Positions 9,851 through 56,955 of a stretch of 64,000 nt of DNA are shown here, piece by piece. The stretch is taken from positions 1,472,001 through 1,536,000 of the forward strand of contig OZ250165.1 in NCBI GenBank assembly GCA_965238005.1, in the 5' to 3' direction. The notes under the pieces were generated by a model. The model worked only from the letters and a program-made list of their open reading frames with translations. It was not told the origin of the DNA and made no database searches. The translations under genes and the position numbers were made by a program. Positions within the stretch are counted from its first letter, which is position 1. Every line of letters starts with the position of its first letter. The DNA is from Longimicrobiales bacterium (GTDB lineage: Bacteria; Gemmatimonadota; Gemmatimonadetes; Longimicrobiales; Gaopeijiaceae).

Positions 9851-11303
9851 CAATAAGAAGCTGACCCCCCGCGACGAGGACTTCGCGGCCTGGTACAACG
9901 AGCTGGTGCTCCGGTCCGAGCTGGCCGACTACTCACCGGTCCGAGGCTGCATGGTCATTCGGCCGTGGGGATATTCCATATGGGAGAACATGCAGCGGGC
10001 TCTAGACGACATGTTCAAGGCCACCGGCCACGAGAACGCGTATTTCCCGCTCCTGATTCCCATGAGCTTCATCGAGAAGGAGAAGGAGCACGTCGAGGGC
10101 TTCAAGCCCGAGCTCGCTATCGTCACCCACGCCGGCGGCAAGGAACTGGAGGAGCCACTCGTGGTTCGGCCCACCTCTGAGACAATCATCATGTCGATGT
10201 TTGCGAAGTGGATCCAGAGCTATCGCGACCTCCCGTTGCTGTTGAACCAGTGGGCGAACGTCATGCGCTGGGAGCTCCGGACCCGGCTGTTCCTGAGGAC
10301 CTCGGAGTTCCTCTGGCAGGAAGGCCACACCGTGCACGCCACGGCCGAAGAGGCGGAGGAGCACACGCGGCGCATGCTGGGCGTGTACCGGACGTTCATG
10401 GAAGACTGGATGGCCATACCTCCCGTAACCGGGCTCAAGTCCGATGCCGAGAAGTTCGCCGGGGCGGTGCGAAGCTATTCGTGCGAGGCCATGATGCAGG
10501 ACAACCGGGCCCTGCAGGCCGGCACCTCGCACTTCCTGGGTCAGAACTTCTCCAAGCAGTTCGAGCTCACCTTCCAGACGGAGGAGGGGATGGAGGAGTA
10601 TGGGTGGAACACCTCCTGGGGGGCGTCCACGCGGCTGGTGGGGGGGCTGGTGATGACGCACGGCGACGACCAGGGACTCGTCCTGCCTCCGAAGCTGGCT
10701 CCCGTCCAGGTCGTCATCGTTCCGATCCTCAAGGGAGACGATCACGGGCCCGTACTCGAGAAGGCCGACGCCATCCGGGATGCTCTGGCGGAAAAGGGCA
10801 TACGTGTCAAGGTCGATTCTCGCGACTACTTGAGCCCCGGCAACAAGTACTACGAGTGGGAGCGGAAGGGCATCCCGCTCAGGATAGAGATCGGGCCCAA
10901 GGACATGGAGTCCGGGCAGGTTGTTCTGGCCAGGCGCGTGCGGTCCGAGGAGGAGCCGCGCAAGGAGTTCGTGCCGGAGTCGGAAGCGCTCGCCACCCTG
11001 GGAGATCGGCTCGACACGTTCCAGACGCAGCTCTTCGAGGCGGCGAAGACCCGGCGGGAGGAGAACTCCTACAGGGGTGTGAACGACCTGGCCGAGCTGG
11101 CCGAGATCATGAACACCACCGGCGGTTACGTATACACGGGTTGGAGTGGAGACCCCGCCGTGGAAGAGCGCATCAAGGACGAGACCAAGGCCACACTGCG
11201 CTGCATTCCAGAGGAGGAGTTCCGATCCCCCAAGGCTCCGGCAAGGTGCATCGGGGGAGAAAAGGACTCCGCCATGGAGGTCGTGTGGGCAAAGGCATAC
11301 TGA
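9840..11303 (+). CDS. proS: Proline--tRNA ligase (archaeal/eukaryote-like type)
   Basis: VRPTSET, NQWANVMRWE, FLWQEGH, QAGTSHFLGQNF, C-terminal KAY; no INS editing domain. Confidence 0.96.
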   Translation: MMADNKKLTPRDEDFAAWYNELVLRSELADYSPVRGCMVIRPWGYSIWENMQRALDDMFKATGHENAYFPLLIPMSFIEKEKEHVEGFKPELAIVTHAGGKELEEPLVVRPTSETIIMSMFAKWIQSYRDLPLLLNQWANVMRWELRTRLFLRTSEFLWQEGHTVHATAEEAEEHTRRMLGVYRTFMEDWMAIPPVTGLKSDAEKFAGAVRSYSCEAMMQDNRALQAGTSHFLGQNFSKQFELTFQTEEGMEEYGWNTSWGASTRLVGGLVMTHGDDQGLVLPPKLAPVQVVIVPILKGDDHGPVLEKADAIRDALAEKGIRVKVDSRDYLSPGNKYYEWERKGIPLRIEIGPKDMESGQVVLARRVRSEEEPRKEFVPESEALATLGDRLDTFQTQLFEAAKTRREENSYRGVNDLAELAEIMNTTGGYVYTGWSGDPAVEERIKDETKATLRCIPEEEFRSPKAPARCIGGEKDSAMEVVWAKAY

Positions 11304-43510: not shown

Positions 43511-43594
43511 GGAGGGGTGGCAGAGCGGTTCAATGCACCGGTCTTGAAAACCGGCGGGCGCAAGCCCACGCGGGTTCGAATCCCGCCCCCTCCG
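43511..43594 (+). tRNA. tRNA-Ser (anticodon UGA), CCA not encoded
   Basis: Acceptor GGAGGGG/CCCCTCC, anticodon arm CCGGT-CTTGAAA-ACCGG, variable arm GGGC-GCAA-GCCC, GGTTCGAATCC T-arm, discriminator G. Confidence 0.96.
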
Positions 43595-43597
43595 CTA
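43584..43597 (+). repeat. attL core (tRNA-Ser 3' end)
   Basis: CGCCCCCTCCGCTA, exactly repeated at 53830-53843. Confidence 0.9.
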
Positions 43598-43651
43598 GTG
43601 CAATACGGCAAGAGCCGATGTAGTATAGACTTACACCGTTATCTGTGCATC

Positions 43652-43675
43652 GTGCCCTACGGTGTGTCCCACACT
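43652..43675 (+). promoter_or_regulatory. Putative integrase arm-type binding sites (left)
   Basis: GTGCCCTACGGTGTGTCCCACACT matches 53678-53701 at 21/24; two tandem 12-bp units. Confidence 0.7.
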
Positions 43676-43802
43676 ACGAGCGGGACGCAAACACTTCCGG
43701 CAGGTGTTCTACTCGGCCGCGCGGGACGGCCAGCCCAAGCCAGGCCCTCAATAGCCTTCCAGCGCTCGCGCAACTGGAGAACTGACCGCCCGCGTTCGCC
43801 CG

Positions 43803-44120
43803 TCATGCCTCTGGCAGTTTCGGCGGCTTGTCTTCCTCATCGAACAAGCTAGGCGGCTTGGTAGTGGCCCCCAGGCGTTCGGCCACGATCCGGGTGTAGC
43901 AGTCCACAAGGTCGTGAGCCGCCATCGCCACGGGCACGCCGGGAGCGGACCCGGACCCCTCGATACGAGCCATCAATTCAACGGCGCACTCAAGGCCGAA
44001 CTCCAACACGTCGCCAGCCCTCGCGCCGTCGATGGTGGCCGCTATGTCGTCCGCGATCTTCAAGGCACGCACGGGCAGGCGGACAGTACGGGTCGTTCTA
44101 GGCTTGCGTCGCTTGAACAT
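43803..44120 (-). CDS. Hypothetical protein, possible ribbon-helix-helix DNA-binding protein
   Basis: AAAGGAGA RBS; RTVRLP beta strand followed by two helices. Confidence 0.6.
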   Translation of the reverse strand: MFKRRKPRTTRTVRLPVRALKIADDIAATIDGARAGDVLEFGLECAVELMARIEGSGSAPGVPVAMAAHDLVDCYTRIVAERLGATTKPPSLFDEEDKPPKLPEA

Positions 44121-44272
44121 CGAATCTCCTTTTCCATGGAATACGGCCAGACCCTAAAGGTGTCACACATACTCCATCCGGTGTCAAGATTGCAAGTGAC
44201 AACCGTATACTGCGTATGCGGGGGATGGTGGCTCAGGGCACCCTAGCACCCACGGACAGGGGCCGAAGGCTG

Positions 44273-45304
44273 CTAGGTGCCGCTCTGTGCGGCCAGGGAA
44301 TCGAGCCCGGTGAGCCTCGCTGCATCGGCCGCGCTCATTCCGGCCGTTACCAATTTCGCGGCCGCACTCGAACGGCCGACGATATCATGAGCCCACAGAG
44401 CCCCGAAGTTGAACGAGACTTCCGTGTCCAGCGCCATGGAGGCGTCTTCGGCGATCATGTCAGCGACGGGCTGGACGGTCGCCATGATCCACCGGCGGTA
44501 GTCTTCTCGAAGCTGCGTCCCGTCCGCGTCCGCGCCCGCCAGGCTGGCCGGAATCCCGCACGCAGCGAACACGGCCCCGGACACGTCCGAGTAGAGCGAG
44601 CGCAGCCCCTCGGGGATCGTCGGCCCCAGGCGCTCGGCCTTCCAATCGTTCCGGGTCCCGCTTTGCGTGCCTTCGCCCCATCCGGCGCTAGTGGACTCTA
44701 GGAGAACCGCCTTTCCTTTCGCTTCGCCTATATCGGTTCGGAGCGCTTCAAGCCCCGCGCCATCGGTCGGGATCGGGACCAGGGCGGCCGTGGGAGTCGC
44801 CAGGTCCTCGGTGATCTTCCCCTCGGCTCCCACGGACAGCTTGCCGAGTAGAGAAGCCACCCCGAGCGGAGACACACCTAGCCAGGGTTGGAGGGGATCG
44901 ACGGACCATCGAAGGTGCAGGACCTCATGACGCGAGACGTTGCGCCGCACGATCACGCCTTCCGGTTCCGGCAAGTGAAGCTCGTAGCGCCAGCCCTTCC
45001 GCACGTCGAAGGCAGCGACGGGCTCAAGATGCAGGCGAGGCTCAACCGCGATCAGGTGAACGCTTTCACCGTGCCGGATCAGGTCCCGGCCGATGGTGTG
45101 GCGCACCCGAGCCGTGAGCACTTCCGGCGCGCCCTCGATGTTCGCAGCGGCCAGGGTGCGGCCCCACAGACCCGCCGCGATCTCAAGCGCTCCGGTGCGT
45201 AGCACGTTCCCGGCATCGGCCGCGGCCGTCGCTTCCAGCCCGGCCACGATCAGGCTTGTGTATCCCGCCGTCCGTTCCTCACGCCGCTTGAAAGGCCACT
45301 TCAT
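44273..45304 (-). CDS. Phage portal protein (HK97-like, compact 343 aa)
   Basis: MKWPFKRRE N-terminus, DLIRHGES, EVLHLRW, WLGVSPL, ACGIP pattern; TGATG coupling to the upstream gene. Confidence 0.8.
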   Translation of the reverse strand: MKWPFKRREERTAGYTSLIVAGLEATAAADAGNVLRTGALEIAAGLWGRTLAAANIEGAPEVLTARVRHTIGRDLIRHGESVHLIAVEPRLHLEPVAAFDVRKGWRYELHLPEPEGVIVRRNVSRHEVLHLRWSVDPLQPWLGVSPLGVASLLGKLSVGAEGKITEDLATPTAALVPIPTDGAGLEALRTDIGEAKGKAVLLESTSAGWGEGTQSGTRNDWKAERLGPTIPEGLRSLYSDVSGAVFAACGIPASLAGADADGTQLREDYRRWIMATVQPVADMIAEDASMALDTEVSFNFGALWAHDIVGRSSAAAKLVTAGMSAADAARLTGLDSLAAQSGT

Positions 45305-45711
45305 CAGATCCGCCCGTCATTGATTAGGTATACCGTGAATTGGAATCGAAGCGCAGCGTTCAAGCTCGATCCAACGGCCTTCTGAGTGGGCAGGTCCCAG
45401 GCACCGGCCAACTGGTAGAAGTAGACACTGACGCCCGAGATCAAAGCATCCTTCAATGTCTGAATCATGAGCTTGGCGATGGCCGGGACCAGCTTACCGG
45501 ACACTCCCACGGCGTCCAGGTGGCCGAAGTAATTGAGAAGGTCCACGGCCAACACGACCCCACCGTGTCGCTGCATTATGCGAATGCGTAGGGATCGCTT
45601 GAGCGCCCCTGACTTCACCGGAATCAGGCGTTGAACATTGGTGCGGAACCCTGAATTGATCTCCGTCTTGAGTACGCCCAGGATGGACCCGGTGAGCGAC
45701 GGCGTAGGCAT
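45304..45711 (-). CDS. Hypothetical protein, possibly HK97 gp10-like neck/tail-completion protein
   Basis: PVKSGALKRSL resembles the gp10 'PV.TG.L..S' motif; follows the head-closure gene. Confidence 0.45.
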   Translation of the reverse strand: MPTPSLTGSILGVLKTEINSGFRTNVQRLIPVKSGALKRSLRIRIMQRHGGVVLAVDLLNYFGHLDAVGVSGKLVPAIAKLMIQTLKDALISGVSVYFYQLAGAWDLPTQKAVGSSLNAALRFQFTVYLINDGRI

Positions 45712-46052
45712 CAGACTTGCCTACTCGTGCATGTGATCGTCGTCTCTCTCTGGCGTTCGTCGGCCGTCGAGATAGACGTAATCAGAAGGTCCCGGCCCCT
45801 CACCCGGCAACGTGCCAGGGTGAAGTCTCCCAGGCTGGCCCTTTGGGTGACGTTGTACAAAAGGGTTCTCATGGATCGGGGCATGGCTAGGTAGCGCATG
45901 GTGACGGAGAAGGCGTCAGCCCGGCTCAATCCGCTTCCCAGGTCGAAGCTTGCGGTCCCCTCATCTTGCACGTCGGCCAGGACGGGCACGGTCACAAAGT
46001 CATCGGCGGTCGATTCCCGGTACGACAGCGTGACCTCTTCATCGTACCTCAT
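45711..46052 (-). CDS. Putative head-closure (stopper) protein, SPP1 gp16-like
   Basis: 113 aa, beta-rich, VTMRY and ITSI...ETTITC pattern; TAATG overlap after the connector gene. Confidence 0.55.
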   Translation of the reverse strand: MRYDEEVTLSYRESTADDFVTVPVLADVQDEGTASFDLGSGLSRADAFSVTMRYLAMPRSMRTLLYNVTQRASLGDFTLARCRVRGRDLLITSISTADERQRETTITCTSRQV

Positions 46053-46414
46053 TAGGGGCCACCCGCCGCGCCGTCGCCGCCGTCGCCGGTGTCCGCCGGA
46101 ACGGCCCCGATCAAGCCACCACGCCGCACCTTGTACGGATTGAGCAGAGAAGCCGCGCCGCTCGAACGCATGGCAGCCGGGCCACCCGGTGCGGCCCCGC
46201 TCGGGTCTGAATCGTAGAGCCACGCCGCCAGGCGCACGAACGCCTCATCGTGGAGCGCGTTCGGAGCGTTCGGAGCGTAGGCCTCCACCATGGCGGTGGC
46301 CGTGGCCGCGATCCTGCCCAGGATAAGGGCAACCGCGCCGGTGGGTGCGGCTTCGCCGTCCGTTATCCGGAGATCGCCTGCAAGCTGCGTGAGGGTCCGG
46401 GTAATCACAGCCAC
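46052..46414 (-). CDS. Head-tail connector (HK97 gp6/SPP1 gp15-like)
   Basis: Helical; ATAMVEAY, EAFVRLAAWLYD, LLNPYK pattern. Confidence 0.75.
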   Translation of the reverse strand: MAVITRTLTQLAGDLRITDGEAAPTGAVALILGRIAATATAMVEAYAPNAPNALHDEAFVRLAAWLYDSDPSGAAPGGPAAMRSSGAASLLNPYKVRRGGLIGAVPADTGDGGDGAAGGP

Positions 46415-46854
46415 ACTCGCCTACGGGCCGTGCTCCGCACTTCGGCGGCCGTCGTGTCGTACTCCGGAGCGCTCACCAACGCAGCCGCCGGGACCATGGC
46501 CCGTAGGACCTCACGGACACCGGCCTTTGTGGTGCGTTCTTCCAGAGCGTGAAACTCAACGCTCATAAACCGCTTACCGGATTCGACGGCCGCTCGGATG
46601 GCCTCGGTCGCTCTGGCTGTCAGAGTGATCCGGCCGTCACGGTGCCTCACGGGCTGTGCTCGAACCTCGACGGCCCCCCGGTGCTCCGCTAGCACGGCCA
46701 CGCCGTCATGCGGCCAGGACACGCTACCAGGTGCGAACACCTCCGCACGGCCACCACTGGCGGCTCTGCCCTCTTGCAACATGACGCCCCTGAGCGTCGG
46801 TTCGTAACCGGCGCGCTCGGCCTCACGTACCTCGACCTCAAAGCTGTATTTCAT
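46405..46854 (-). CDS. HK97-family prohead protease
   Basis: EVFAPG, LAEH (His), MSVEF (Ser), ALVSAPEY...EVR; ATGA overlap. Confidence 0.8.
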   Translation of the reverse strand: MKYSFEVEVREAERAGYEPTLRGVMLQEGRAASGGRAEVFAPGSVSWPHDGVAVLAEHRGAVEVRAQPVRHRDGRITLTARATEAIRAAVESGKRFMSVEFHALEERTTKAGVREVLRAMVPAAALVSAPEYDTTAAEVRSTARRRVWL

Positions 46855-47273
46855 CGGTACCACCTCCGCACCGCTTTATCGCACTCGGGAGAGATCAGGC
46901 CGTCAGAATCGGCTAGGCGAGCTCGCACCGTTTCCTCGCCAGGGTCAACGGTTCGGACGAAAAGCCCGCGCTCGCCTGCTACCTCGCGCCAACGCGGCTC
47001 TTGCCCGGCCCGCGACGTGGTGACCGCAACATCGGCCCCGGAGTCCAGCACGTTCCGGGCGATCACCGCTTGAGCGTAGAGCGCGGCCAGGAGCGCCGGA
47101 TCGTCTTCGCTCCGCACCGGATAGCGACCGTCAGGGCCACGGGTGGCACCCGAGAGCGCCGCCCATAGAGCGGTGACGTCCGCTACCACGGAAACCTCAC
47201 CGGCCTCCAACATCTCGGCCACGACCTGAGACTTACCGGACCCGGCCGGGCCTTGGACTAGATGCAGCGGCAC
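46851..47273 (-). CDS. Small P-loop NTPase/kinase-like protein
   Basis: N-terminal Walker A LVQGPAGSGKS; 140 aa; DPGEETVRARL lid-like motif. Confidence 0.75.
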   Translation of the reverse strand: MPLHLVQGPAGSGKSQVVAEMLEAGEVSVVADVTALWAALSGATRGPDGRYPVRSEDDPALLAALYAQAVIARNVLDSGADVAVTTSRAGQEPRWREVAGERGLFVRTVDPGEETVRARLADSDGLISPECDKAVRRWYR

Positions 47274-47276
47274 GGC

Positions 47277-48512
47277 TTAGGAGATCTTCGGGTGGACCTC
47301 TTTGACTTGCGCGGTCCCGTGAGGAATGAACGGCTCGGCAACCAAGGTGACGGCCGTCACAACCCTCTGGCCCTTACCGGCCTGAGTGTACGGGTCCACG
47401 ATCAGCTCCACCCCGGACCAGATCGGCACGACCACGGACTGCCCCTGAGCGCCCAACAGCGCTACGCCCTTCTGACCGGACGCGGCCTTGTCCGGGACGC
47501 GAGTGGACACCCTCAGCACCGCGAGCTTGCCCATCAGGTAGTCATAGAGGCTCACCGCCGCGTTGTTCTGGTAGAGCGAAGCGTACAGCGCGAAGGTGTC
47601 GGTCCCGATCAGCGCCCGGATATCGCCGAATCCGTTGGCGTGCTTCCCCTCGACCAGGGCAGCGAACCGGGCCACTCCGGTTTGGAAGGTTTCCTTCGCG
47701 GCCGCTATCGCTACGTCCGTGGCTTGGTGGAACAGCCCGGAAAGGTTCGGGTCCGCGCCGTCTCCGTCGATCACTTGATCGTCCAGATTCGATGCCATGG
47801 CCCCGCCGATGGCTGCCCTCAAGTCTGCTTCCATCGAAGGCATGAGCGCGAGATCCTCCAGGCGCACGACGAACGAGCCGGTGATCCGGCCCGGCGTGCG
47901 CTTCGTCAGACTGAAAGCCGCAGCCGTGGAATCCGCCGCCGCGTCCTCAGCCTTCGCACCGGCAGGTGGCGCGGTCGTGAGCGCCGGAAAGTGAGCTTCG
48001 CCAGGCTGGACCATCGGCATGGTGATTCCGAGCGCGGCCGCGTCCGTCCGAGCGAATGCGAAAGGCACCGTCGGCCGGGTGGCGCTCACAGTCTCATCGG
48101 CAGGGTTCGGAGTGACGGCCCGCGCCTCGGGAGCGTCCTGAGCTTCCAGAAGCTCTAGCGGCATCCGGCCCGGCGTGCCCACGGCCTCCGCATACTCGGC
48201 GGAAGCGCCCCGGACACCCTGAGCGGTGAGCGCGGCCGACACGAAGTCACCCACCCGTGCCTTGCCTCGAAGCGCCAGGCGCTCGCGAGTCTCCGCGTCT
48301 ACCGGATCGGCGTTCGGGTCGGGATCGGGCTCGGCGCTTTCGGCGACGATGGCCGCCCGGTGGCGCGTCTCTAGGTCCGCGTACTCGGTCTGGAGGGTTC
48401 CCGACTCTGTGCGGACCTCATCGGTGAAGGCGTCGCCCTCAAGCCCGGAAATCTCATTCAGGCGGGAGCGTACTTCGGAGAGACGGAGTGCGATTTTCTG
48501 GCGAGAAGTCAT
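47277..48512 (-). CDS. Major capsid protein (HK97 fold) with N-terminal coiled-coil delta domain
   Basis: About 110-aa helical N-terminus, LDDQVIDGDG, C-terminal IWSGVELIVDPYT. Confidence 0.85.
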   Translation of the reverse strand: MTSRQKIALRLSEVRSRLNEISGLEGDAFTDEVRTESGTLQTEYADLETRHRAAIVAESAEPDPDPNADPVDAETRERLALRGKARVGDFVSAALTAQGVRGASAEYAEAVGTPGRMPLELLEAQDAPEARAVTPNPADETVSATRPTVPFAFARTDAAALGITMPMVQPGEAHFPALTTAPPAGAKAEDAAADSTAAAFSLTKRTPGRITGSFVVRLEDLALMPSMEADLRAAIGGAMASNLDDQVIDGDGADPNLSGLFHQATDVAIAAAKETFQTGVARFAALVEGKHANGFGDIRALIGTDTFALYASLYQNNAAVSLYDYLMGKLAVLRVSTRVPDKAASGQKGVALLGAQGQSVVVPIWSGVELIVDPYTQAGKGQRVVTAVTLVAEPFIPHGTAQVKEVHPKIS

Positions 48513-48539
48513 TAGGACCAAGCCCCTTGTGTGCGTTCA

Positions 48540-48848
48540 CTACGCGGGATCGCTCCCGCACGGTACTTGAGGCTTTTTTGGTCCAACTGAAAGCTGGCAG
48601 TCCGTGGTGAATCCCGCAAGGTGGCGCTCCCAGGCGTCTTCCGTCTCCGTGGTGGGCCGTCGATGGTGCTCTATGTGACACCCTCGACACCACGCTACCA
48701 GATTGGACGGCTCATTATGATCCGGGCGATGGTCGATATGGTGGACCTCAAGCTGCCCGGCCTTGCCACATTTCCGACACCGCCACCCGTCACGGTTGAG
48801 AATCTTCCGGCGTAGGAGCTTCCATTGGGCGGTCGATGTGCGGCTCAA
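48540..48848 (-). CDS. HNH endonuclease (terminase-associated)
   Basis: W..LR..IL.RDGWRCRKC, EVHH, NLVAWCRGCH; TTG start overlaps the TerL stop. Confidence 0.9.
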   Translation of the reverse strand: MSRTSTAQWKLLRRKILNRDGWRCRKCGKAGQLEVHHIDHRPDHNEPSNLVAWCRGCHIEHHRRPTTETEDAWERHLAGFTTDCQLSVGPKKPQVPCGSDPA

Positions 48849-50299
48849 ACCAACACCGCTTTGACGCCCGCTGCCGGTGGCTCTTGAAGCACCTTCCGCC
48901 ACCCGAGCGCGACGGCCAGGATCGCGGCCGCTGCCGCATCGTCCCGAGCGCGAGCCCGTCGCCCCTGACCGGCCTTCGCCAATTTTTCATTCCCGGCTGG
49001 ATCGGCAATCGTGCGAGCGGAGGCAACGGCGGCAGACAGCAAGAGCGAGCGGGCAGGGGTTACCAGCATCCGGTGAAAGGCAGCCCTGAATCCTCGAACG
49101 TCTTCACCGCCGTCCCGGTAGCCCATTCCCCTCGACACCAACGCCACGAGAGGGAAACGGAGCGCCGCCAGCGCTTGCCTCAATTCGGCCTCACGCCAGC
49201 GGTCTGTGACTATAGCCGCGGGCGCGCCCCACCGCTCCCACACTTCGCCCAGGAGCGTCCGAACGTCGCTCACCTTGCCAGGGGATAGGACAAGCTCACC
49301 ACGCGCCTCCATCTTCTGATAGAGCGCTCCCACGCCGTCACGGAGCCCTCTTTCTTTCGGTCCCGGGTCGTCACCGAAACATGCGACGGCATCGAGCCTT
49401 CCCGTCTCGCACCAAAAGCCAGAAGCGGCCGACATAGCCTCGGTTGAACCCAGGTCGATCCCGAGCACGTAGTCACCCACGGCCGCCGCGTCACCCTCGG
49501 CAGCCTTCCAGGCGCCCGGCTGTAGCAAGTGAGCCTCAACCGTGTCGGACGTGCCCAGGTTGAGCCTGAGCGCCCCGAACGAAGCCAGGGCCACCGGGTC
49601 CCGGCGCGCGATCTCGGCTTCCTCGCGCAACCGATCCTCAAGCCAGGGGAAGGCATCTAAGGAAGGGTTGGCCCGTCGCCATGTACGCCGCTGAAAAGGC
49701 GGGTCATCCGGCCTTGCCGCGAAGGTTGTGGAACCCGGCTCAGCGAGCATCCTAGAGAACCAATGGTCCTCAGAGTCGGGCCGTGTCCCGAGAGCGATCA
49801 GTCGAGAGCCCGGATGCTTGCCCAACCCGGTCCTCAGCGCAGCCAACGCCGCCTCACTGGTAGTGGGTGGCCACTGTGCGGGTTCGTCCGCCAGCACGAG
49901 AAGCGGCCTCAAACCGTGCATCCGGCGCGGGTCGGACCCGATGGCTTTCAAGCGGGCTCTTGTGGGCAAGTGCTCTATCTCGGCAATCGCGGTCGTGTCC
50001 CGCACCCGCCAGGTGTCCCGATCCTCCAGGCGCTCGCTCAGGTAGTGCTTCACGTCCCGAAACATGATGAGGCTCTGAGCGAACGAAGACGCGACCAAGA
50101 TCACCTCCGCACCCGGAGCGCGGAGCGGGCCGTCAATCACCGCCGCCGCTATCGCTCCGCACAGCGCGCTCTTGCCGTTGCCCCTCGCAACCGATAGGGC
50201 AAGATCGCCCTTGGTGCGGGCCAGGTCCGAAAGGAAACGGCGCTCCCAGGGGACGAGATCCAGGTGACGGCCGACATAGCCAACTAGGGATTCACTCAC
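48845..50299 (-). CDS. Terminase large subunit (HK97/Terminase_1-like)
   Basis: Walker A VARGNGKS, Walker B LVLADE, RNase H-like LGIDLG and C-terminal DDAAAA. Confidence 0.92.
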   Translation of the reverse strand: MSESLVGYVGRHLDLVPWERRFLSDLARTKGDLALSVARGNGKSALCGAIAAAVIDGPLRAPGAEVILVASSFAQSLIMFRDVKHYLSERLEDRDTWRVRDTTAIAEIEHLPTRARLKAIGSDPRRMHGLRPLLVLADEPAQWPPTTSEAALAALRTGLGKHPGSRLIALGTRPDSEDHWFSRMLAEPGSTTFAARPDDPPFQRRTWRRANPSLDAFPWLEDRLREEAEIARRDPVALASFGALRLNLGTSDTVEAHLLQPGAWKAAEGDAAAVGDYVLGIDLGSTEAMSAASGFWCETGRLDAVACFGDDPGPKERGLRDGVGALYQKMEARGELVLSPGKVSDVRTLLGEVWERWGAPAAIVTDRWREAELRQALAALRFPLVALVSRGMGYRDGGEDVRGFRAAFHRMLVTPARSLLLSAAVASARTIADPAGNEKLAKAGQGRRARARDDAAAAAILAVALGWRKVLQEPPAAGVKAVLV

Positions 50300-50409
50300 G
50301 AAGCGTGACCACAAAGCCGTACTTCGGGCTCTCTCTCAGGTTGGCCGGTGCCATAACGTGCCGGTCCGCCGAGTCGGACGTGTCTATCCTCGAGCCGAGT
50401 CATCGTCAT
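50296..50409 (-). CDS. 37-aa hypothetical peptide
   Basis: ATG directly follows the upstream stop; its TGA overlaps the TerL GTG. Confidence 0.4.
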   Translation of the reverse strand: MTMTRLEDRHVRLGGPARYGTGQPEREPEVRLCGHAS

Positions 50410-50625
50410 CTATGCGCGATCGGGATCTACTGGCCCCATCACCTTGTGCTCCACTCCATCTATCTTGACCGTCGCGCATTCGACCTCGGGCTCTGGCTCT
50501 GGCTGTCCATCTTCGGGCTCGCCTTCACCCGTCTCGATGCGCTCGCGTGCGCCCTCTACGAGCTTGGCTAACTGCCCCTGGATATCTTCCAGGTTCGCCA
50601 AGGTCACCTTCACCTCGATCTCCAT
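50410..50625 (-). CDS. Hypothetical acidic protein (71 aa)
   Basis: Abuts both neighbours with no gap in the coupled operon. Confidence 0.6.
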   Translation of the reverse strand: MEIEVKVTLANLEDIQGQLAKLVEGARERIETGEGEPEDGQPEPEPEVECATVKIDGVEHKVMGPVDPDRA

Positions 50626-50856
50626 TCAGTCCGCCCCCTTGCCCGCTAGGATCGCTCCAATGAACAGCGCTGCTACAGCGCCCATGGCCCCGGCGTCGCC
50701 GTGCGGCAGGGTAACGCACAACTGGCCGTCATCGGTTGGCGAGATCGTCACCCTTAGCTCGTCTTCCGGTTCGTCACCTTCGGTGCGGGAGTAGAGCCGC
50801 TGCGTCTCGCCCTCGGTTTCCGTGCTCCACCCCGGTAGTGGGAAGTCCTGCCTCAT
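50626..50856 (-). CDS. Hypothetical protein (76 aa) with hydrophobic C-terminus
   Basis: ATGA overlap with the upstream ORF. Confidence 0.6.
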   Translation of the reverse strand: MRQDFPLPGWSTETEGETQRLYSRTEGDEPEDELRVTISPTDDGQLCVTLPHGDAGAMGAVAALFIGAILAGKGAD

Positions 50857-51023
50857 GCGCTCGCCTCGATGGCGACCCGGTACGCTTCGACGAACTCCGG
50901 CACATCTTGCTTCACCAAAATGGCGAAGTCTTCCGGCTCGATCTCACCCGCTTCCATGAGCTTGAGAATCGAGGCGGCTTTCTCTCGGGTGTTGGTCCCT
51001 CGGATCGTGGTTTCTGCTTTCAT
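50853..51023 (-). CDS. Hypothetical protein (56 aa; MKAETTIRG...IEASA), not in the ORF track
   Basis: Translated by hand; ATGA overlaps at both ends (51020-51023, 50853-50856). Confidence 0.6.
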   Translation of the reverse strand: MKAETTIRGTNTREKAASILKLMEAGEIEPEDFAILVKQDVPEFVEAYRVAIEASA

Positions 51024-51679
51024 GTGTTCGGGCTCCGCGTGGGGTACCAGGAAGGTAGGACTGTCCCCGTAGGGGGTGGGGTCCCACCTACGGCGGTCCC
51101 ACCTTCTTGGGACCCACTAGCGGGGAGACTCCACAGATACATTCTCGGGTTGACTTTCGTCACTTCGATACGACCCTCGACTCTCAACTGTGACAGCGCC
51201 TTGGTCACGGTATCCTTGCGTCCACCAACCACCCTGCGCACCGCCGCCGTTGCCAGGGGACCGGCACCCGTCAACGCTTTGATGATGCGTTTCTGCATGG
51301 TGTCGGGTTCGGGCTTGGTTTCCTTCGATGCGGGCAGTTCCCGTGCAGCCCGTAGCCGGAAGTCTTCCGCAAACCGCGCTTGTTCACGGTTCCGATGCTC
51401 CAGGGTGGCCCGGTTCATCGCCTCGGCCGTGTAGGTTTGCCTGCCCCACGTTGCGGGCTCTGTGGCGAGTACGGGTGTGGGTATGATGGGGCAGCCCGGC
51501 GGGAGCCCGTCACCGATGGATGGGATGGGTTCCTCGACAGCCTCAGCCGCCGCCTCGGCCTTTGCGGCCATGCGGTCGCAGATGGCTTGGTATTCCTCAT
51601 TCGTGTGCTCTGTGTTGAGTCCCAACATCTTCCGCACCCGGACCACTTCGGGCGATGGCGCGTAAGGGTCAGGGGCCAC
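51020..51679 (-). CDS. Hypothetical protein with C-terminal winged-helix-like segment
   Basis: IIKAL...VRRVVGGRKDTVTKALSQLRVEGRI pattern; occupies the usual replication-gene position. Confidence 0.6.
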   Translation of the reverse strand: MAPDPYAPSPEVVRVRKMLGLNTEHTNEEYQAICDRMAAKAEAAAEAVEEPIPSIGDGLPPGCPIIPTPVLATEPATWGRQTYTAEAMNRATLEHRNREQARFAEDFRLRAARELPASKETKPEPDTMQKRIIKALTGAGPLATAAVRRVVGGRKDTVTKALSQLRVEGRIEVTKVNPRMYLWSLPASGSQEGGTAVGGTPPPTGTVLPSWYPTRSPNT

Positions 51680-51718
51680 GCGGGCTACTATCGCTTGCCG
51701 TTCGGTGGGGGCTTCGCT

Positions 51719-51913
51719 TTATGCGGCTGGGCTGTTGGAGGCGGGCCGGGATTCGAGCCAGTCGGACACGTCCTCGGCCTTCCAGCGGACTGCCCGCCTG
51801 CCGATGCGGATCGGGCGCGGAAACCGGCCCTCGCTCATCAGCCGGTAGATCGAAGCGCAGGATAGATCAACGGCCTTCTCGACGTCGGGGCGCCGCATCA
51901 GCTTCGGAAACAT
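51719..51913 (-). CDS. alpA: AlpA family regulator/excisionase
   Basis: LMRRPDV...SIYRLMSEGRFPRPIRIGRRAVRW; AAGGAG RBS. Confidence 0.92.
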   Translation of the reverse strand: MFPKLMRRPDVEKAVDLSCASIYRLMSEGRFPRPIRIGRRAVRWKAEDVSDWLESRPASNSPAA

Positions 51914-51999
51914 TGTTGGGTCTCCTTGCAAGTGCTTGTGACTTCGCATGGAGACACGATGACGACGGGAAGGCGGCCCCGTGAGTTGGTAGAATTCAA

Positions 52000-52530
52000 C
52001 TAATTGTTCCCACCACTCCAGGACACGTCGTCATCCCGGTTCCGCCTGAGCCAGATATCCCGGTAGACATCGTTGTGATGAATGGCCCCGCCCACGAGGC
52101 GACAGGCCTCCATCACACCGAGGCCGAGCCCTTGAAGCTCGAAGATCGTGTGTACGACTAGCAGATTGCGCAATGCTTTCGCCGGCCGTCCGGGTTTCCC
52201 CGGTGGGGGCTCTGACCTTGTTCCGTCTGCGACGTCCCGCACCCATTCCTGGAACCCGGGATCGTCCACGGCGGCCTGAGCCCATTCGCGGTCTTGTGCG
52301 GGGAGATTGGTCGGGTCTCGGGAGACCTGTAGCAGGCACTGCAACGCCTGCCAGCAGGGGCGATCATCCTTACTCCGGTCGATGAGATCCTGAAGGTCGT
52401 TTCCGATTTCGGCCCCTTCGTTGACATCATGCGTGACGGCGAGGATTCTTTTGAGCCTCTTGACCTCGGGACCGTTCTCGTCGAGCGCCTCTTTCAGCCC
52501 CAGCAGGACTTCCGCGACCCGCTTATTCAT
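52000..52530 (-). CDS. Hypothetical protein (176 aa), possibly DNA-binding
   Basis: ATGA overlap with the integrase; GKPGRP followed by a helical C-terminus. Confidence 0.65.
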   Translation of the reverse strand: MNKRVAEVLLGLKEALDENGPEVKRLKRILAVTHDVNEGAEIGNDLQDLIDRSKDDRPCWQALQCLLQVSRDPTNLPAQDREWAQAAVDDPGFQEWVRDVADGTRSEPPPGKPGRPAKALRNLLVVHTIFELQGLGLGVMEACRLVGGAIHHNDVYRDIWLRRNRDDDVSWSGGNN

Positions 52531-53660
52531 CGTTTGCCTCCGATGTACCGCGCCCAATCGGCCATGACTTCGCGGCGGCGCTCGTACAGCGTCCCGCGAT
52601 CGTAGGCCGCCTGCACCTTGTCCCGGACCGCGTGAGCAAGCGCCCGTTCCGCGAGCTCGGGGGCAACGGCGGTGTCGCCGCACCATGTCCTGAACGATGT
52701 TCTGAACCCGTGCGGAACCGCTTGGACGCCGTTCTCCCGGAGTAGCTTCGTCAGGGTCATGGCCGACAGCGGCCGCCCGGTCGGGGAAGGGAAGATCAGC
52801 CCTGAGCCGTCCGCGATCTCCCGCGCCTCGTCGAGAACTTGGAGCGCGGCCGGGGCGAGGGGAACACGGTGGGGACGGCCCGACTTGGTGCGACGGCTGG
52901 GGATCGTCCACGTGTCTCCGTCGATCTCCGTCCATTCGGCCAGCCTTGTCTCCCCGGATCGCGTCGCGGTGAGCGTCAGGAACCGGAAGGCCAGCTTCGT
53001 CTCGATCCATGCGTCCGAAGCCTCCACCCTTGCCAGCGCGGCCCGGACCTCTTGGTGGGGGACCGCGCGGAAGTGCTTCACCTTGCCCCCGTTCTTCGGC
53101 AGTGCCGCCCCGATGGCGTCACCGGCCGGGTTGTCCTCGCGGTAGCCTTGGGCTATTGCCCACTTCATGACTGCGCCGATGCGCTGGCGCACCCGCCGGG
53201 CAGTCTCCCTCTTGGTGCTCCAGATCGGGAGCAGAACGGCCATCACGTCGGCGGTGTTGACCTGGTCCACCCTCTTCCTCCCGATACGAGGGAAGGCGTA
53301 GGTCTTTAGGCTGGCGCGCCACTGGGCTTCGCTCTTGCTTCCCGGCCGCCACGCCTCAAGGTGAATCTCCAGAACCTTCTCCAGTGCGCCCTCGAAGCTG
53401 GGGGCCGTGGTCTTGAGTGCGCGCGGATCGCCACCGGCTCGGGCGAGTTTCTTGTACTCGAACGCCGCCTGGCGCGCTTCGGCGAGCGCAGTGTAGGGGT
53501 AGCCGCCGAGGCCCAGGTCTACCCGGCGGCCCCGAACGGTGCCGCGCCAGATCCATTGCTTGCTTCCGGTGGGCTTCACCCGTAGGATCAACCCGTGCTC
53601 ATCGTAGTAGAGTCCGGGCTTCGCGTGCTTCACGCTGGCCGCCGTGAGTCGCTTTGGCAT
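52527..53660 (-). CDS. Tyrosine integrase, P4-like with N-terminal arm-binding domain
   Basis: GLILRV...W...LGLGGYP..LAEAR arm domain; catalytic TRSGE, TKSG, HGFR, LAH, AAY. Confidence 0.95.
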   Translation of the reverse strand: MPKRLTAASVKHAKPGLYYDEHGLILRVKPTGSKQWIWRGTVRGRRVDLGLGGYPYTALAEARQAAFEYKKLARAGGDPRALKTTAPSFEGALEKVLEIHLEAWRPGSKSEAQWRASLKTYAFPRIGRKRVDQVNTADVMAVLLPIWSTKRETARRVRQRIGAVMKWAIAQGYREDNPAGDAIGAALPKNGGKVKHFRAVPHQEVRAALARVEASDAWIETKLAFRFLTLTATRSGETRLAEWTEIDGDTWTIPSRRTKSGRPHRVPLAPAALQVLDEAREIADGSGLIFPSPTGRPLSAMTLTKLLRENGVQAVPHGFRTSFRTWCGDTAVAPELAERALAHAVRDKVQAAYDRGTLYERRREVMADWARYIGGKR

Positions 53661-53677
53661 CGTTCGATTCCCCCGCT

Positions 53678-53701
53678 GTGTCCTACGCCGTGTCCCACAC
53701 T
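53678..53701 (+). promoter_or_regulatory. Putative integrase arm-type binding sites (right)
   Basis: GTGTCCTACGCCGTGTCCCACACT, 21/24 identical to 43652-43675. Confidence 0.7.
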
Positions 53702-53829
53702 GTATTCGAGAATACACGCAAAGGCGTAAGAACACAAGAGTACGAAGGGGAACGTAACCCGAAGGTACTACAGGGATTTAGAGACTTCGCGGGAACCTAC
53801 GGGAACACCTGAAAACCATAAGAGAGGGA

Positions 53830-53843
53830 CGCCCCCTCCGCTA
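53830..53843 (+). repeat. attR core
   Basis: CGCCCCCTCCGCTA, duplicate of the tRNA-Ser 3' end, 170 bp upstream of the integrase start. Confidence 0.9.
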
Positions 53844-53958: not shown

Positions 53959-54090
53959 TCAAGGGTGTCCAGGGCCCCGCTCCGGCTCATCCACGAGCGA
54001 TCGAAGGTGCTCGCGGGAGAGGTGTGTATAGCCCATCGTGGTGCGTAAGTCGGAGTGACCAAGACTCTCCTTCACGTGCACCGGATTCTT
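53959..54090 (-). pseudogene. Tyrosine recombinase C-terminal remnant
   Basis: NPVHVKESLGHSDLRTTMGYTHL (box II LGH...Y). Confidence 0.85.
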
Positions 54091-54093
54091 CTC

Positions 54094-54318
54094 TTCGGCC
54101 AACTTGTAGAGATCGGGTCGAGCCGCGGATTCGATTTCACCGCCGAGGAGATACTTAGCGTGCGCAGCACCGCGCTCGACGACGAAGAGCTGACCGACGA
54201 CGCCCTTGAGGCCGTGGCTGGCGGCGGCCAGGTCCAGGATCCGGAGGCGTCGAGGGTGACCAGGACCAAGAAGGAGAAAGTGCAAAAGCTGGACACGACG
54301 GAAATACTTCGGCCCTAG
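54094..54318 (+). pseudogene. Nif11-like leader RiPP precursor, 5'-truncated
   Basis: LVEIGSSRGFDFTAEE...EELTDDALEAVAGG followed by a 30-aa core. Confidence 0.7.
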
Positions 54319-54433
54319 CGACACCGCGATGGCGAAGCGGTAGCGCCTGAGAAAGTCCACGGCAGAGTCCTCGAGTGGAGTTGACCCGCTTTGGTGGACA
54401 CCTCAGTAGTGAGGGAGACAGGAGGAGTCCACG

Positions 54434-54748
54434 ATGCCAAGAACACATGCGCCGTACCCGCCGGAGTTTCGGCGGCAGATGGTCGAGTTGGTCAGGTCGG
54501 GCCGCTCCGTGGAGGAGCTGGCCCGGGAGTTCGAGCCCTCAAACGGGGCGATACGGAACTGGGTCAAACAAGCTGACTTGGATGAAGGCCGTCGCAGTGA
54601 CGGGCTGACGACGGAGGAGCGTGGGGAACTCAGGCAGCTTCGGCGTGACAACAAGCGTCTGCGCATGGAGCAGGAGATTCTAAAAAAAGCCGCCGCCTGG
54701 TTTGCTCGGGAGAGCAACTCGATCCCGGAACGGGGTTCGAGTTCATGA
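54434..54748 (+). CDS. IS3 transposase OrfA
   Basis: YPPEFR HTH, ELRQLRR...EILKKAAAWFA; A7G slippery site at 54682-54689. Confidence 0.92.
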   Translation: MPRTHAPYPPEFRRQMVELVRSGRSVEELAREFEPSNGAIRNWVKQADLDEGRRSDGLTTEERGELRQLRRDNKRLRMEQEILKKAAAWFARESNSIPERGSSS

Positions 54749-55596
54749 AGACGAATCAGGCCGACTTCCCTGTGCGGGCGATGTGCCGTGTGCTGGATCT
54801 CTCCCCCAGCGGCTACTACGCCTGGTTGGATCGCGAGCCTTCGGCTCGGGCGAAGCGAGATGAGGAGCTCACAGAGCGGATCGAGACGGTCTGGCGCGAG
54901 AACCGAAGGGTCTATGGCCGGCCCCGCATCTACGCGGACCTCAAGGAAGCTGGCGAGCGGGTCGGTGAGAAGCGGGTGGGCCGGCTCATGAAGCAGGCCG
55001 AGATTGTGGGAGCTAGCCGGAGGCGGCGCGGCCCGAAGACGACCAGGCGCAACGAGGACGCCCGTCCCGCGCCGGATCTCATCGAGCGGGACTTCAGCGC
55101 AGACGGGCCAGACCAGTTGTGGGTGGCCGACATCACCTACATCCCGACCTGGGCGGGGTTCTTGTACCTCGCGGTTGTGCTCGACGTCTGGAGCAGGCGG
55201 GTGGTCGGGTGGTCGATGGCTACGCACCTGCGCACCGAGCTCGTCCTGGACGCGCTGAACATGGCGACCTGGCAGCGCCGGCCCGAATGCGTCATCCATC
55301 ACAGTGATCAGGGAACCCAGTACACCTCGATCGCCTTCGGCCTACGCTGCAACGATGTCGGTGTGCGGCCCTCGATGGGCTCCGTGGGCGACGCCTACGA
55401 CAACGCGATGTGCGAGAGCTTCTTCGCGACGCTCGAGTGCGAGCTACTCGACCGGCAGCGCTTCCGGACCCAGGCCGAGGCGAAGATGGCCGTGTTCGAC
55501 TTCATCGAGGGCTTCTACAACCCCCGGAGGCGACACTCGGCACTGGGTCAGCTGTCGCCCATCAACTTCGAGCGTCGCCACGGAGCGGCAGCATGA
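54745..55596 (+). CDS. IS3 transposase OrfB (DDE)
   Basis: WVADITY, HHSDQGTQY, DNAMCESFF, YNPRRRHS. Confidence 0.95.
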   Translation: MKTNQADFPVRAMCRVLDLSPSGYYAWLDREPSARAKRDEELTERIETVWRENRRVYGRPRIYADLKEAGERVGEKRVGRLMKQAEIVGASRRRRGPKTTRRNEDARPAPDLIERDFSADGPDQLWVADITYIPTWAGFLYLAVVLDVWSRRVVGWSMATHLRTELVLDALNMATWQRRPECVIHHSDQGTQYTSIAFGLRCNDVGVRPSMGSVGDAYDNAMCESFFATLECELLDRQRFRTQAEAKMAVFDFIEGFYNPRRRHSALGQLSPINFERRHGAAA

Positions 55597-55720
55597 GAAA
55601 CCTGCGTGGCCAAGTTGCCCTTTACTCCCCCGCTGCGCGGGGGAAGCTTTCCTCTCCCCAGCGAGGGGGACAGACTATAAACCTCAGTGTTCACCCGTCC
55701 ACTGAAACGGGACAGCTCCA

Positions 55721-56955
55721 CTTCTGTCTTACGCCCGAGTGGGTGCTGTCGATCAGGTTGGTCGAGCCCAGGCACTTCCTCAGCCGCGGCGGGAGGCCGA
55801 GCCGGTTGATCGTGAACATCTCGCTGAGGCCTTCGCGTAGGCTGGCCGAGGCCGAGGGGTGGTCGCGCTCGAGCCATCGGGCGAGCTGCTCGAGCTTCTG
55901 CTCGCCCTGCTTCGCGTCCAGCTTCATCGCCGCCCGGAACGCCGCCTTCACCTGAGGATGCTGATCCTTCGGCAGATGACCCAGCACGTTGCGGAGCTTG
56001 TGGTTGCGGCAGCGCTGGATGGGGTGACGTTGGCCGAACACCTTCTCGATCGCCTTCCTGGGCGCTTTCGAGCCATCGATCACGAACAGCCGCCGCCTGC
56101 CCGGGTCCAGGCCGCGCTCGACCAGATCCTCTAGGAGCGCGCTGGTCACCTCGGCGTTCTCACTCGCTCCTTCCCTCACGCCCAGCACGTGCTTCTTTCC
56201 GTCTGAGTCCAAATCTAGGGACACTACCAGCAAGGGTGCGAGCCCATCTGGATCCCGTCCAGGTAGATCACCAGGAGGTCCCACGCATCCAGCCGGCGCT
56301 CCATCAGCTCCTTCAGCACGCGCTCCGAGGCCTCGACCGTCTCACGGCTCACCGCCGACTTGCTCACCCCGACCGTGTCGGCCATCTCACCGATCACACG
56401 GCCGTACTTCCGCGTGCTCACCCCCGCCATCAGGACCTCGAGCATCCGATCCGCCACGGCGCCCGGTCTCCGCATCGCTGCGTACGCCGGCACCTCGACC
56501 TCGCCACCCTCCCCGGCGCCCCGGCGCCTGAGCCGTGGCCGCTCCACACGCACCTTCCGGTCCGACAGGTAAACCACACCACCCTGCCGGCCATACCACA
56601 CCGTGTCGTCTTCCGCTCGTGACCGACCTGCCTGCTTCACGCCTGCCACACCCTCGGCGCTCATCTCCAGCACCGCTTCGATCGTCGCTCGTCCCATCAC
56701 CTGGATGACTTCGTCGATCGCGACCTCCGTCTGCTCCACGAGCTCAAGCATCGGAAGCAGAAACTGCCCCTCCCGCTTCAGGAACTCCCTGATCGCGCGC
56801 TTGTCCGCCCGATCCCTTACCTCGTACGTTCTCTTCATCGTGGTGGCTCCGTGTTGGGGTTTTTGCCTACCCGAGCCTATCGGCCCGGGACCCCCGGAGC
56901 CACCACTTTTCTTTCTCCCCTATCAGGAACCTTCAACTACGGTTGGGACAGCTTC
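55721..56955 (-). mobile_element. IS256-family element remnant (frameshifted, 3'-truncated by IS3)
   Basis: GVSTR, SKSAVSR, YLDG, KHVLG, FVIDG, QRCRNHK, STNLIDS split over two frames; ORF start 56838. Confidence 0.85.

Follow-up and report, generated by a model that had tools for sequence, protein, structure and literature searches.

The window analyzed here is a stretch of 64,000 nucleotides (nt) from the 4.84-Mb single-contig genome of a Longimicrobiales bacterium of the phylum Gemmatimonadota (contig OZ250165.1, positions 1,472,001 to 1,536,000), and it contains a 10.2-kb element that is inserted at a tRNA-Ser gene and encodes an integrase, packaging enzymes and the parts of a phage head. 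An earlier sequence-only reading had bounded the element by a 14-bp att repeat, and this was borne out: the 14-mer CGCCCCCTCCGCTA occurs at 43584-43597 and 53830-53843 and nowhere else on either strand of the genome, with the first copy starting within the last bases of the tRNA-Ser(TGA) 3' end and 10,246 bp (43598-53843) lying between the att cores. All 18 open reading frames (ORFs) called in the element are on the minus strand and none holds an internal stop, in agreement with the earlier claim of a single coding strand without visible lesions; the overlaps between genes, then given as mostly 1-4 bp, are 1-10 nt long at 10 of the 17 junctions, with two more junctions abutting (the HNH gene being counted from the TTG at 48848). 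GC content gives no contrast that would mark the element off from its flanks.

The gene assignments are collected in Table 1. Family matches, together with structural models for capsid and portal, confirmed the integrase (best seen in the Pfam match to Phage_int_M, 2.7e-26), AlpA, large terminase (TerL), HNH, capsid and portal genes of the sequence-only reading, and its protease, connector and closure genes were upheld indirectly, through matches of their relatives and through the ESM Atlas. It had missed the Ne1 neck gene, the P-loop protein and the lack of a recognizable gene for a small terminase (TerS) or a primase.

Table 1. Features of the element and its borders, in window coordinates unless a locus is named (aa, amino acids)
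Feature	Position	Strand	Basis
tRNA-Ser(TGA), integration target, kept intact	43511..43595	+	ARAGORN
14-bp att core, copy on the tRNA side	43584..43597	+	genome-wide repeat count, 2 copies only
12-bp repeat, possible integrase arm site	43664..43675 and 53690..53701	+	genome holds only these 2 copies
105-aa ORF without meaningful family match	43803..44120	-	Pfam/PHROG scans
Portal protein, 343 aa	44273..45304	-	PF04860 7.8e-8 (below Pfam cut-off); model
Neck/tail-completion protein (Ne1, HK97 gp10-like), 135 aa	45304..45711	-	profile search
Head closure protein (Hc1-like), 113 aa	45711..46052	-	ESM Atlas look-alikes
Head-tail adaptor/connector (Ad1, gp6-like), 118-120 aa	46052..46414	-	family alignment A2
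HK97-type prohead protease, 149 aa, invariant His58 and Ser98	46405..46854	-	family alignment
Small P-loop NTPase/kinase (AAA_33), 140 aa, accessory	46851..47273	-	PF13671 4e-6
Major capsid protein, 411 aa, HK97 fold, helical N-terminal delta-like domain	47277..48512	-	PF05065 7.6e-8; model
HNH endonuclease, ~102 aa, coupled to the terL stop; putative gp74-like terminase partner	48540..48848	-	Pfam/PHROG
Large terminase TerL, 484 aa, Walker A/B and nuclease acidic residues intact	48845..50299	-	phrog_9 4e-48; alignment A6
37-aa micro-ORF, couples the upstream genes to terL (adjoins the preceding stop, shares 4 nt with the terL start); possibly no real gene	50296..50409	-	
Motif copy (TGGCACC core), candidate cos site	50343..50356	-	motif comparison across loci
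Three small coupled ORFs (56, 76 and 71 aa), no TerS family match	50410..51023	-	Pfam/PHROG scans
208-aa protein, weak winged-helix match	51020..51646	-	TrmB 0.023
AlpA regulator/excisionase	51719..51913	-	PF05930 5.7e-14
176-aa ORF after the integrase	52000..52530	-	relatives in 3 other elements (cluster c0)
P4-type tyrosine integrase, 377 aa	52527..53660	-	PF13356, PF22022, PF00589
14-bp att core, copy on the integrase side	53830..53843	+	genome-wide repeat count, 2 copies only
Long adaptors of other elements	L080:3484-5778, L159:4952-7418, L161:8562-10704, L087:5934-6765		

Head and neck genes

The AlphaFold model of the capsid protein (pLDDT 82) matched the capsids of HK97, D3 and the T5-type DT57C (Foldseek E 6e-11), and that of the portal (pLDDT 75) matched the portals of gene transfer agents (GTAs), HK97 and others (PDB comparison, E 4e-8), so that both models have HK97-type folds. 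By sequence, the capsid and adaptor profiles gave zero PDB matches and the protease profile found one entry; in a separate comparison, the family protease profile matched HK97 gp4 at 3.5e-7. The window protease has no direct family match, and 10 of its 19 aligned relatives match Peptidase_S78. The adaptor was likewise assigned through its relatives (3 of 19 match phrog_442 and 2 of 19 the Ad1 family phrog_40), the window copy having no direct family match, and the closure ORF, also lacking one, was assigned through the ESM Atlas (score 0.94; 191 shared features, PF05521); a purpose-built closure profile failed to recover this 113-aa ORF. The 135-aa ORF was the top non-member match (E 7e-5, best reversed decoy 0.24) for a profile of the Ne1 proteins of 10 relatives, which itself matched HK97 gp10 at 1.7e-4. 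The labels Ad1, Hc1 and Ne1 follow the naming of PHROG and of database records.

The P-loop AAA_33 gene is kept in a minority of relatives only, and its product aligned to positions 124-256 of phrog_4581 (ESM Atlas 0.93). This protein (46851-47273) and the HNH protein (48540-48848) match adjoining parts of phrog_4581, a family labelled terminase small subunit in which the two are seemingly fused, a hint of a packaging role for the P-loop protein.

Insertion site and mobility

In the congener G002, which is 96% identical to the window over the kilobase ending at the tRNA, the site is empty, the tRNA end running straight into DNA that resembles the sequence past the right att core. A second congener, G001, has different DNA beyond tRNA-Ser. 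Element genes were absent from the 19 kb beyond the tRNA in both congeners, and neither carries a larger prophage at the site. Because the att pair is unique and the site is empty in G002, the 10.2-kb element is a mobile insert and no prophage remnant at the tRNA-Ser site.

Past the right att core (window 53959-56838) lie an integrase C-terminal fragment, an IS3-family element and a split Mutator-family transposase, which suggests that this tRNA-Ser site is an insertion hotspot. The host genome (G000) additionally holds more than 20 integrase paralogues, most of them 43-54% identical to the integrase of the element, and 11 further AlpA-like genes, none of either kind accompanied by head genes. 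Two dense tRNA arrays were observed at G000:C1 1035994-1037821 (17 genes) and 4451264-4455247 (18 genes), the first including a tRNA-Ile(AAT) call, which is unusual in bacteria.

The 208-aa protein occupies the slot that in relatives holds primase/helicase or Rep genes, with AAA_25, VapE-like or Replicase genes recognized there; a search for a longer relative of this protein, of little weight as evidence, found none.

A family of elements with a common gene order

Capsid relatives numbered 335 among 8,000 scored candidates, and the lengths of 115 contigs carrying them fell most often into the 8-10 kb bin, with a second rise at 20-24 kb. In a first set of 38 loci (37 relatives and the window element) most had the order int-alpA-(replication)-terL-HNH-capsid-protease-adaptor-portal, a few were circularly permuted and several were broken. 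Seven tRNA-anchored elements, that of the window included, measure 9,262-12,494 bp and stand at tRNA-Ser (two), Asn, Sec, Pro, Ala and Arg; sizes were taken from tRNA-anchored repeats only, as chance repeats of 12-14 bp flank many relatives. A second set, collected by TerL alignment, comprised 108 loci (the best 80 of 245 confirmed in IMG/VR, in records of 4-26 kb, plus 28 metagenomic), and, with many of these contigs incomplete, HNH was found in 106, capsid in 101, protease in 89 and portal in 79, nearly always in that order. Capsid queries had given zero confirmed relatives in IMG/VR or JGI contigs, where the narrower TerL alignment succeeded. Taken together, the family amounts to more than 130 loci with the order terL-HNH-capsid-protease-portal, about 9-13 kb long where bounded, across which TerL identity falls to about 30%.

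Three records closed by terminal repeats are circles of 10,194, 10,704 and 13,632 bp, and one contig (L038/L063, G417:C2) is a tandem of a 9,605-bp unit without integrase, identical at 10,395 of 10,395 bases in one stretch and at 10,307 of 10,359 in an overlapping stretch. The integrase-less L080 (the 10,194-bp circle), L038/L063 and L004 carry plasmid-type Replicase-PriCT, VapE-like helicase or HTH-Rep genes and, judged by gene content, may be satellite-plasmid forms. Panacea/SocA-like antitoxin genes recur as cargo in or after the packaging operon (L029, L030, L031).

Head and packaging genes showed ratios of nonsynonymous to synonymous substitution (dN/dS) of 0.07-0.47 in the closest pairs (at most nine pairs per gene, one of them without a synonymous change), indicative of purifying selection; between the window TerL and its nearest relative, the proportions of nonsynonymous (pN) and synonymous (pS) differences were 0.21 and 0.65. 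Among the elements fetched, the window capsid was closest to that of an Acidobacteriota element (67%) and the window TerL to those of own-family elements (74%), a difference that reflects a shuffling of modules. The capsid was absent from the nearest genomes (0 of 40); it was present in 16 of a further 400 genomes from the phylum, two of these matches being weak, and in 14 of 251 genomes from the class of G425 (Vicinamibacterales). One capsid relative carries a Gemmatimonadota name.

These data bear directly on whether the element arose by deletion from a prophage with a tail or is a GTA head cluster that has been domesticated, an idea that is largely refuted already and that we rank as the least probable of all. 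It draws on the Ne1 gene, which normally adjoins tail genes, on the unrecognized replication gene, on the matches of the capsid and portal models to RcGTA proteins as well, and on the several relatives broken by insertion sequences; yet both att cores are intact, size and order stay constant over the whole range of TerL identity, the best 80 of the 245 IMG/VR relatives gave no tail match, and capsid or TerL matches of the family type to cultured phages never rose above 30%. Purifying selection and a patchy presence, unlike that of a fixed GTA, argue in the same direction.

Absence of tail and lysis genes

The sequence-only reading had seen no tail, tape-measure or lysis genes between the att sites, and none was matched among the called genes of the element or among 24 further ORFs of at least 85 aa on both strands. 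In the relatives, PHROG and Pfam scans covered 144 of 268 unassigned ORFs from 30 of 31 elements (ORFs below ~80 aa, transposases and some close duplicates being omitted) and yielded zero tail tube, tape measure, baseplate, holin, lysin or TerS matches; the same null was returned by 40 of 50 representatives of the ORF clusters recurring in the 108 loci and by 99 ORFs of the three circles. Ne1 neck proteins were found in nine scanned relatives and a tail terminator in one, L027, where neck protein and tail terminator lie 3' of the portal (L027:6201-6970) and a weak 'minor tail' match sits beneath the stronger Ne1 match. As L027 illustrates, the point at which a helper takes over may vary among members.

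Some copies were found within or beside phage genes. In G654 (C1 ~2,046,900-2,057,700; L073:14956-16068, L074:5936-6199) a partly decayed family element with a multicopper oxidase gene interrupts a prophage's major capsid gene, and a 14-bp direct repeat marks each of the two joints; this prophage is a tailed one with TerS, tape measure, holin and endolysin, and thus phages with tails share hosts with the family. Another copy, in G524 (L050), has its start directly behind a phage capsid gene that differs from the one in G654 and is truncated at the corresponding position of the profile; phage-like genes lie past the other end of this copy, with no clear repeat. Copies of this type possibly form a subfamily that disables helper heads and spares the tails, as helper-embedded phage-inducible chromosomal islands (PICIs) might.

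Five of 80 adaptor ORFs, from four elements, are extended by 151-699 C-terminal residues that appear fibre-like by eye (Table 1), the extension in L080 having no Pfam or PHROG match and no relative among the fetched loci. Such extensions, together with the plasmid-type or VapE-type replication genes of the integrase-less circles and a host genome in which no helper was found, could fit a tail-independent mini-virus or transfer particle, in which head and neck would be the whole particle and the neck would adhere to cells or to helper virions. We judge this improbable, given that the window adaptor has no extension, that the L080 extension is without a family match, that Ne1 and the tail terminator of L027 are tail-docking parts, that lysis genes were not found, and that tail-less heads of the type of EcCIEDL933, the prototype capsid-forming PICI (cf-PICI), need tails according to the excerpted reports on it.

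Packaging genes and a candidate cos motif

The closest cultured-phage matches of the window TerL are TerL proteins of the HK97 group, at 27-30% identity, and the HNH gene lies 3' of terL in the TerL-relative loci wherever the two share a strand. In one element, TerL and HNH of the usual kind are replaced by a large terminase of the lambda gpA type, which is encoded on the other strand (L052:10792-12414). The sole other TerL-like ORF of the host genome (L075:8107-9156, G000:C1 ~1,791,100) is a weak match (phrog_9 1.7e-7), with no head genes recognized nearby.

PHROG and Pfam scans gave no TerS family match for ORFs of the element or of the scanned relatives. The TerS profile phrog_83, which recovered as controls the TerS of EcCIEDL933 and that of the tailed prophage in G654, was silent in four element-bearing genomes (G000, G399, G176, G232) and five virus records, and no TerS match was obtained for the N-terminal extensions of six long TerL relatives, several of which look basic and helical by eye. 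Searches of 24,688 six-frame ORFs with single TerS and primase sequences were blank and were discarded, since they also missed the positive control; two matches to a C-terminal pattern of P27-type TerS were off-frame and were dismissed as chance. The slot 5' of terL holds no conserved ORF family, 37 of 67 loci being without any clustered ORF there, and the clusters that do occur are mostly adaptor, closure or primase/helicase. Furthermore, elements L033, L049 and L051 have almost no unassigned ORF left within the packaging operon.

A non-coding motif with the core GGNNCC, in three variants, stands directly 5' of terL, at the place expected of a cos site, in 74 of 100 loci, a share that is inflated because the pattern was built from the same loci, many of them kin; it was present in 161 of 6,646 control windows. 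The motif occurs in all three frames and precedes the TerL Walker A codon by 130-275 nt. The sequence ACCG follows 34-35 nt downstream in 31 of the 74 loci and within a 16-nt window in 39 of the 74, compared with 9% at random. The genome end of HK97 is likewise preceded by a G-run and an ACCG, which stand 39 nt from each other, and the 700 nt from cos to the Walker A codon are taken up by terS in that phage. Set against these 700 nt, the short distance in the family suggests that cos is joined directly to terL, with no space left for terS. Contig ends 5' of terL disagree among loci and, among the matches listed, do not pile up at the motif.

Excerpts on HK97 state that packaging in vitro needs only TerL and procapsid, TerS being dispensable, that gp74 triggers cos cleavage (both PMC9410871), and that TerS provides cos-specific binding and stalling (PMC11331095, PMC9410871); packaging free of TerS is thus possible. 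The same satellite might instead package with a TerS, be it an unrecognizable small ORF or that of a helper, and would then be a divergent cf-PICI lineage. We consider this unlikely, while giving it some weight: terS is core in the described cf-PICIs, as far as the excerpted reports go, TerS sequences are poorly conserved (as the missed search control shows), 9 of 11 SatelliteFinder functions are present, and several small ORFs have no assignment. The lack of a conserved ORF family 5' of terL, the closeness of the motif to the Walker A codon and the near absence of spare ORFs in L033, L049 and L051, in a scan of ORFs of at least ~80 aa, all argue the other way.

Interpretation and proposed mechanism

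Taken together, these results show that the window carries an intact, 10.2-kb, head-only element, probably a capsid-forming satellite that borrows tails and lysis from a helper, an unrelated long-tailed phage. In such a cycle, Int inserts the element at the tRNA-Ser 3' end via the 14-bp core, and excision would be aided by AlpA. The resulting circle would be copied by host or helper replication, perhaps via the 208-aa winged-helix protein, which is the weakest step of the scheme. Capsid, protease and portal would assemble a small head, presumably T=4-like by analogy with EcCIEDL933, which TerL and the coupled HNH would fill without a small terminase of their own after cutting the conserved site 5' of terL, the putative cos. 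Ad1, Hc1 and Ne1 would then close the head and form a tail dock, and a helper tail would be joined in the cell or after lysis, as in cf-PICIs.

More tentatively, and with somewhat less than an even chance of being right throughout, we propose a very widespread family, evolved independently, of ~10-kb head-only elements that select and cut their own genomes with a two-part motor of TerL and HNH acting at a cos fused to terL, with no small terminase; its forms would include islands at tRNA genes, circles that have a plasmid replicon in place of an integrase, insertions within the capsid genes of helpers and members with fibre-bearing adaptors, some of them perhaps tail-independent.

Several points weigh against these proposals. 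Apart from the inflated count given above, the motif copy of the window has an imperfect second half and sits inside the 37-aa ORF, and the motif could instead be a promoter or operator. TerS diverges fast, so that one of the small ORFs could be an unrecognized TerS, and the specificity of HK97 stems from TerS, which would leave the choice of sequence by a TerS-free motor unexplained. Pfam and PHROG scans of the ORFs in the window copy recognized no primase, helicase or other replication gene. Excision, particles, transcripts and transfer of the element were all unseen in the data searched; the attP/attB joint was absent among 15 assembly joints listed of 35, which is uninformative on excision, and contigs from 4 of 15 runs cover the element (at most three samples, two studies), contig depth not being equal to copy number. 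Finally, no tailed prophage was found in the host genome (completeness 96%), which gave no tape-measure match and no second capsid, and no helper was identified; the element would need a phage entering from outside as its helper, or else tails encountered after lysis, as has been shown for cf-PICIs (excerpt of 10.1101/2025.02.11.637232).

If the interpretation holds, satellites that make only heads and pirate their tails extend far beyond the three cf-PICI clades described so far, and many of the 10-kb records rated as 12-33% complete phages are entire members of a single family. The family would also offer a natural test of whether sequence specificity in vivo can be achieved by a cos system of the HK97 type that lacks a small terminase. 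A minimal head able to package its own DNA and to dock on the tails of other phages would, moreover, be a candidate vehicle for bringing genes into phyla not yet in culture.

Comparison with known systems

No description of the family was found in the literature searched, the scope of which excluded supplements and most subscription journals; members may already figure in the tables of SatelliteFinder or among the data files of PMC13669383. The published systems below are compared on the basis of excerpts of the cited reports.

A close parallel is the head and cos packaging module of phage HK97 (gp1-gp7, gp10, gp74). Family profiles match its TerL (3e-68), capsid (9e-6), protease (4e-7), portal (0.003) and gp10 (2e-4), the HNH partner is shared and the two-part motif is spaced like the HK97 genome end. 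The window element differs in having no recognized gp1 (TerS), tail terminator, tail or lysis genes, in its rearranged genes and in a quarter of the genome size.

The G654 copy, which interrupts a capsid gene in a tailed prophage and has a 14-bp direct repeat at its joints, resembles helper-embedded PICIs; these are described as using helper heads (PMC10111431), whereas the window element stands at a tRNA gene outside any prophage. Mulch/MiniFlayer (PMC10690885), EPIPs (PMC12822802) and 'twilight' HK97 mini-genomes (PMC13669383) are alike in a length of ~9-17 kb, in some virion parts and in a known or possible need for a helper. EPIPs differ by carrying TerS and a tape measure, and encapsulin-like mini-genomes, as characterized in PMC13669383, by lacking portal and terminase; the unclassified twilight genomes of the same report might include family members. 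A GTA would occupy a fixed host locus across a clade, without integrase or att sites, whereas the window element is bounded by att and its capsid is missing from the nearest relatives.

The sequence-only reading held that this gene content defines cf-PICIs, for which we used the prototype EcCIEDL933 and the reports 10.1101/2022.09.08.507074, PMC10085698 and 10.1101/2025.02.11.637232. The likeness is considerable: integrase and AlpA come first, genes run in one direction, att sites bound a length of 10-18 kb, the elements have their own HK97-type capsid, protease, portal, adaptor, closure, HNH and TerL, and both lack tail tube, tape measure and lysis genes. Counted by function and not with SatelliteFinder profiles, 9 of 11 SatelliteFinder cf-PICI components are present, the lowest class in PMC10085698. 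That the content defines cf-PICIs was nevertheless unsupported. TerS, a core gene of described cf-PICIs, was unrecognized in every family member tested, the primase-replicase module is variable in the family and unrecognized in the window copy, and an extra Ne1 neck gene is often carried. The family order terL-HNH-capsid-protease-adaptor-portal also contrasts with the cf-PICI order capsid-protease-portal-connectors-HNH-terS-terL (10.1101/2022.09.08.507074) and matches no order in the cf-PICI descriptions excerpted. Against EcCIEDL933, BLAST gave no match for capsid or TerL at E 0.1 and 23% identity for the portal at E 0.03. In a quick tree of 45 TerL proteins, with eight references that included EcCIEDL933 and no Firmicute cf-PICI, the 37 family proteins fell on one side of a branch (SH-aLRT 100), apart from EcCIEDL933. 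The suggestion of a distinct, head-only family outside the described cf-PICI lineages is supported, the element being kept under selection, and that it is a functional satellite, as the sequence-only reading proposed, is probable. Because TerS, replication module and gene order depart from those of cf-PICIs and TerL stands apart from EcCIEDL933 in this small tree, we file the element not as a cf-PICI but as a member of a separate capsid-forming satellite family, which would probably work in a cf-PICI-like manner.

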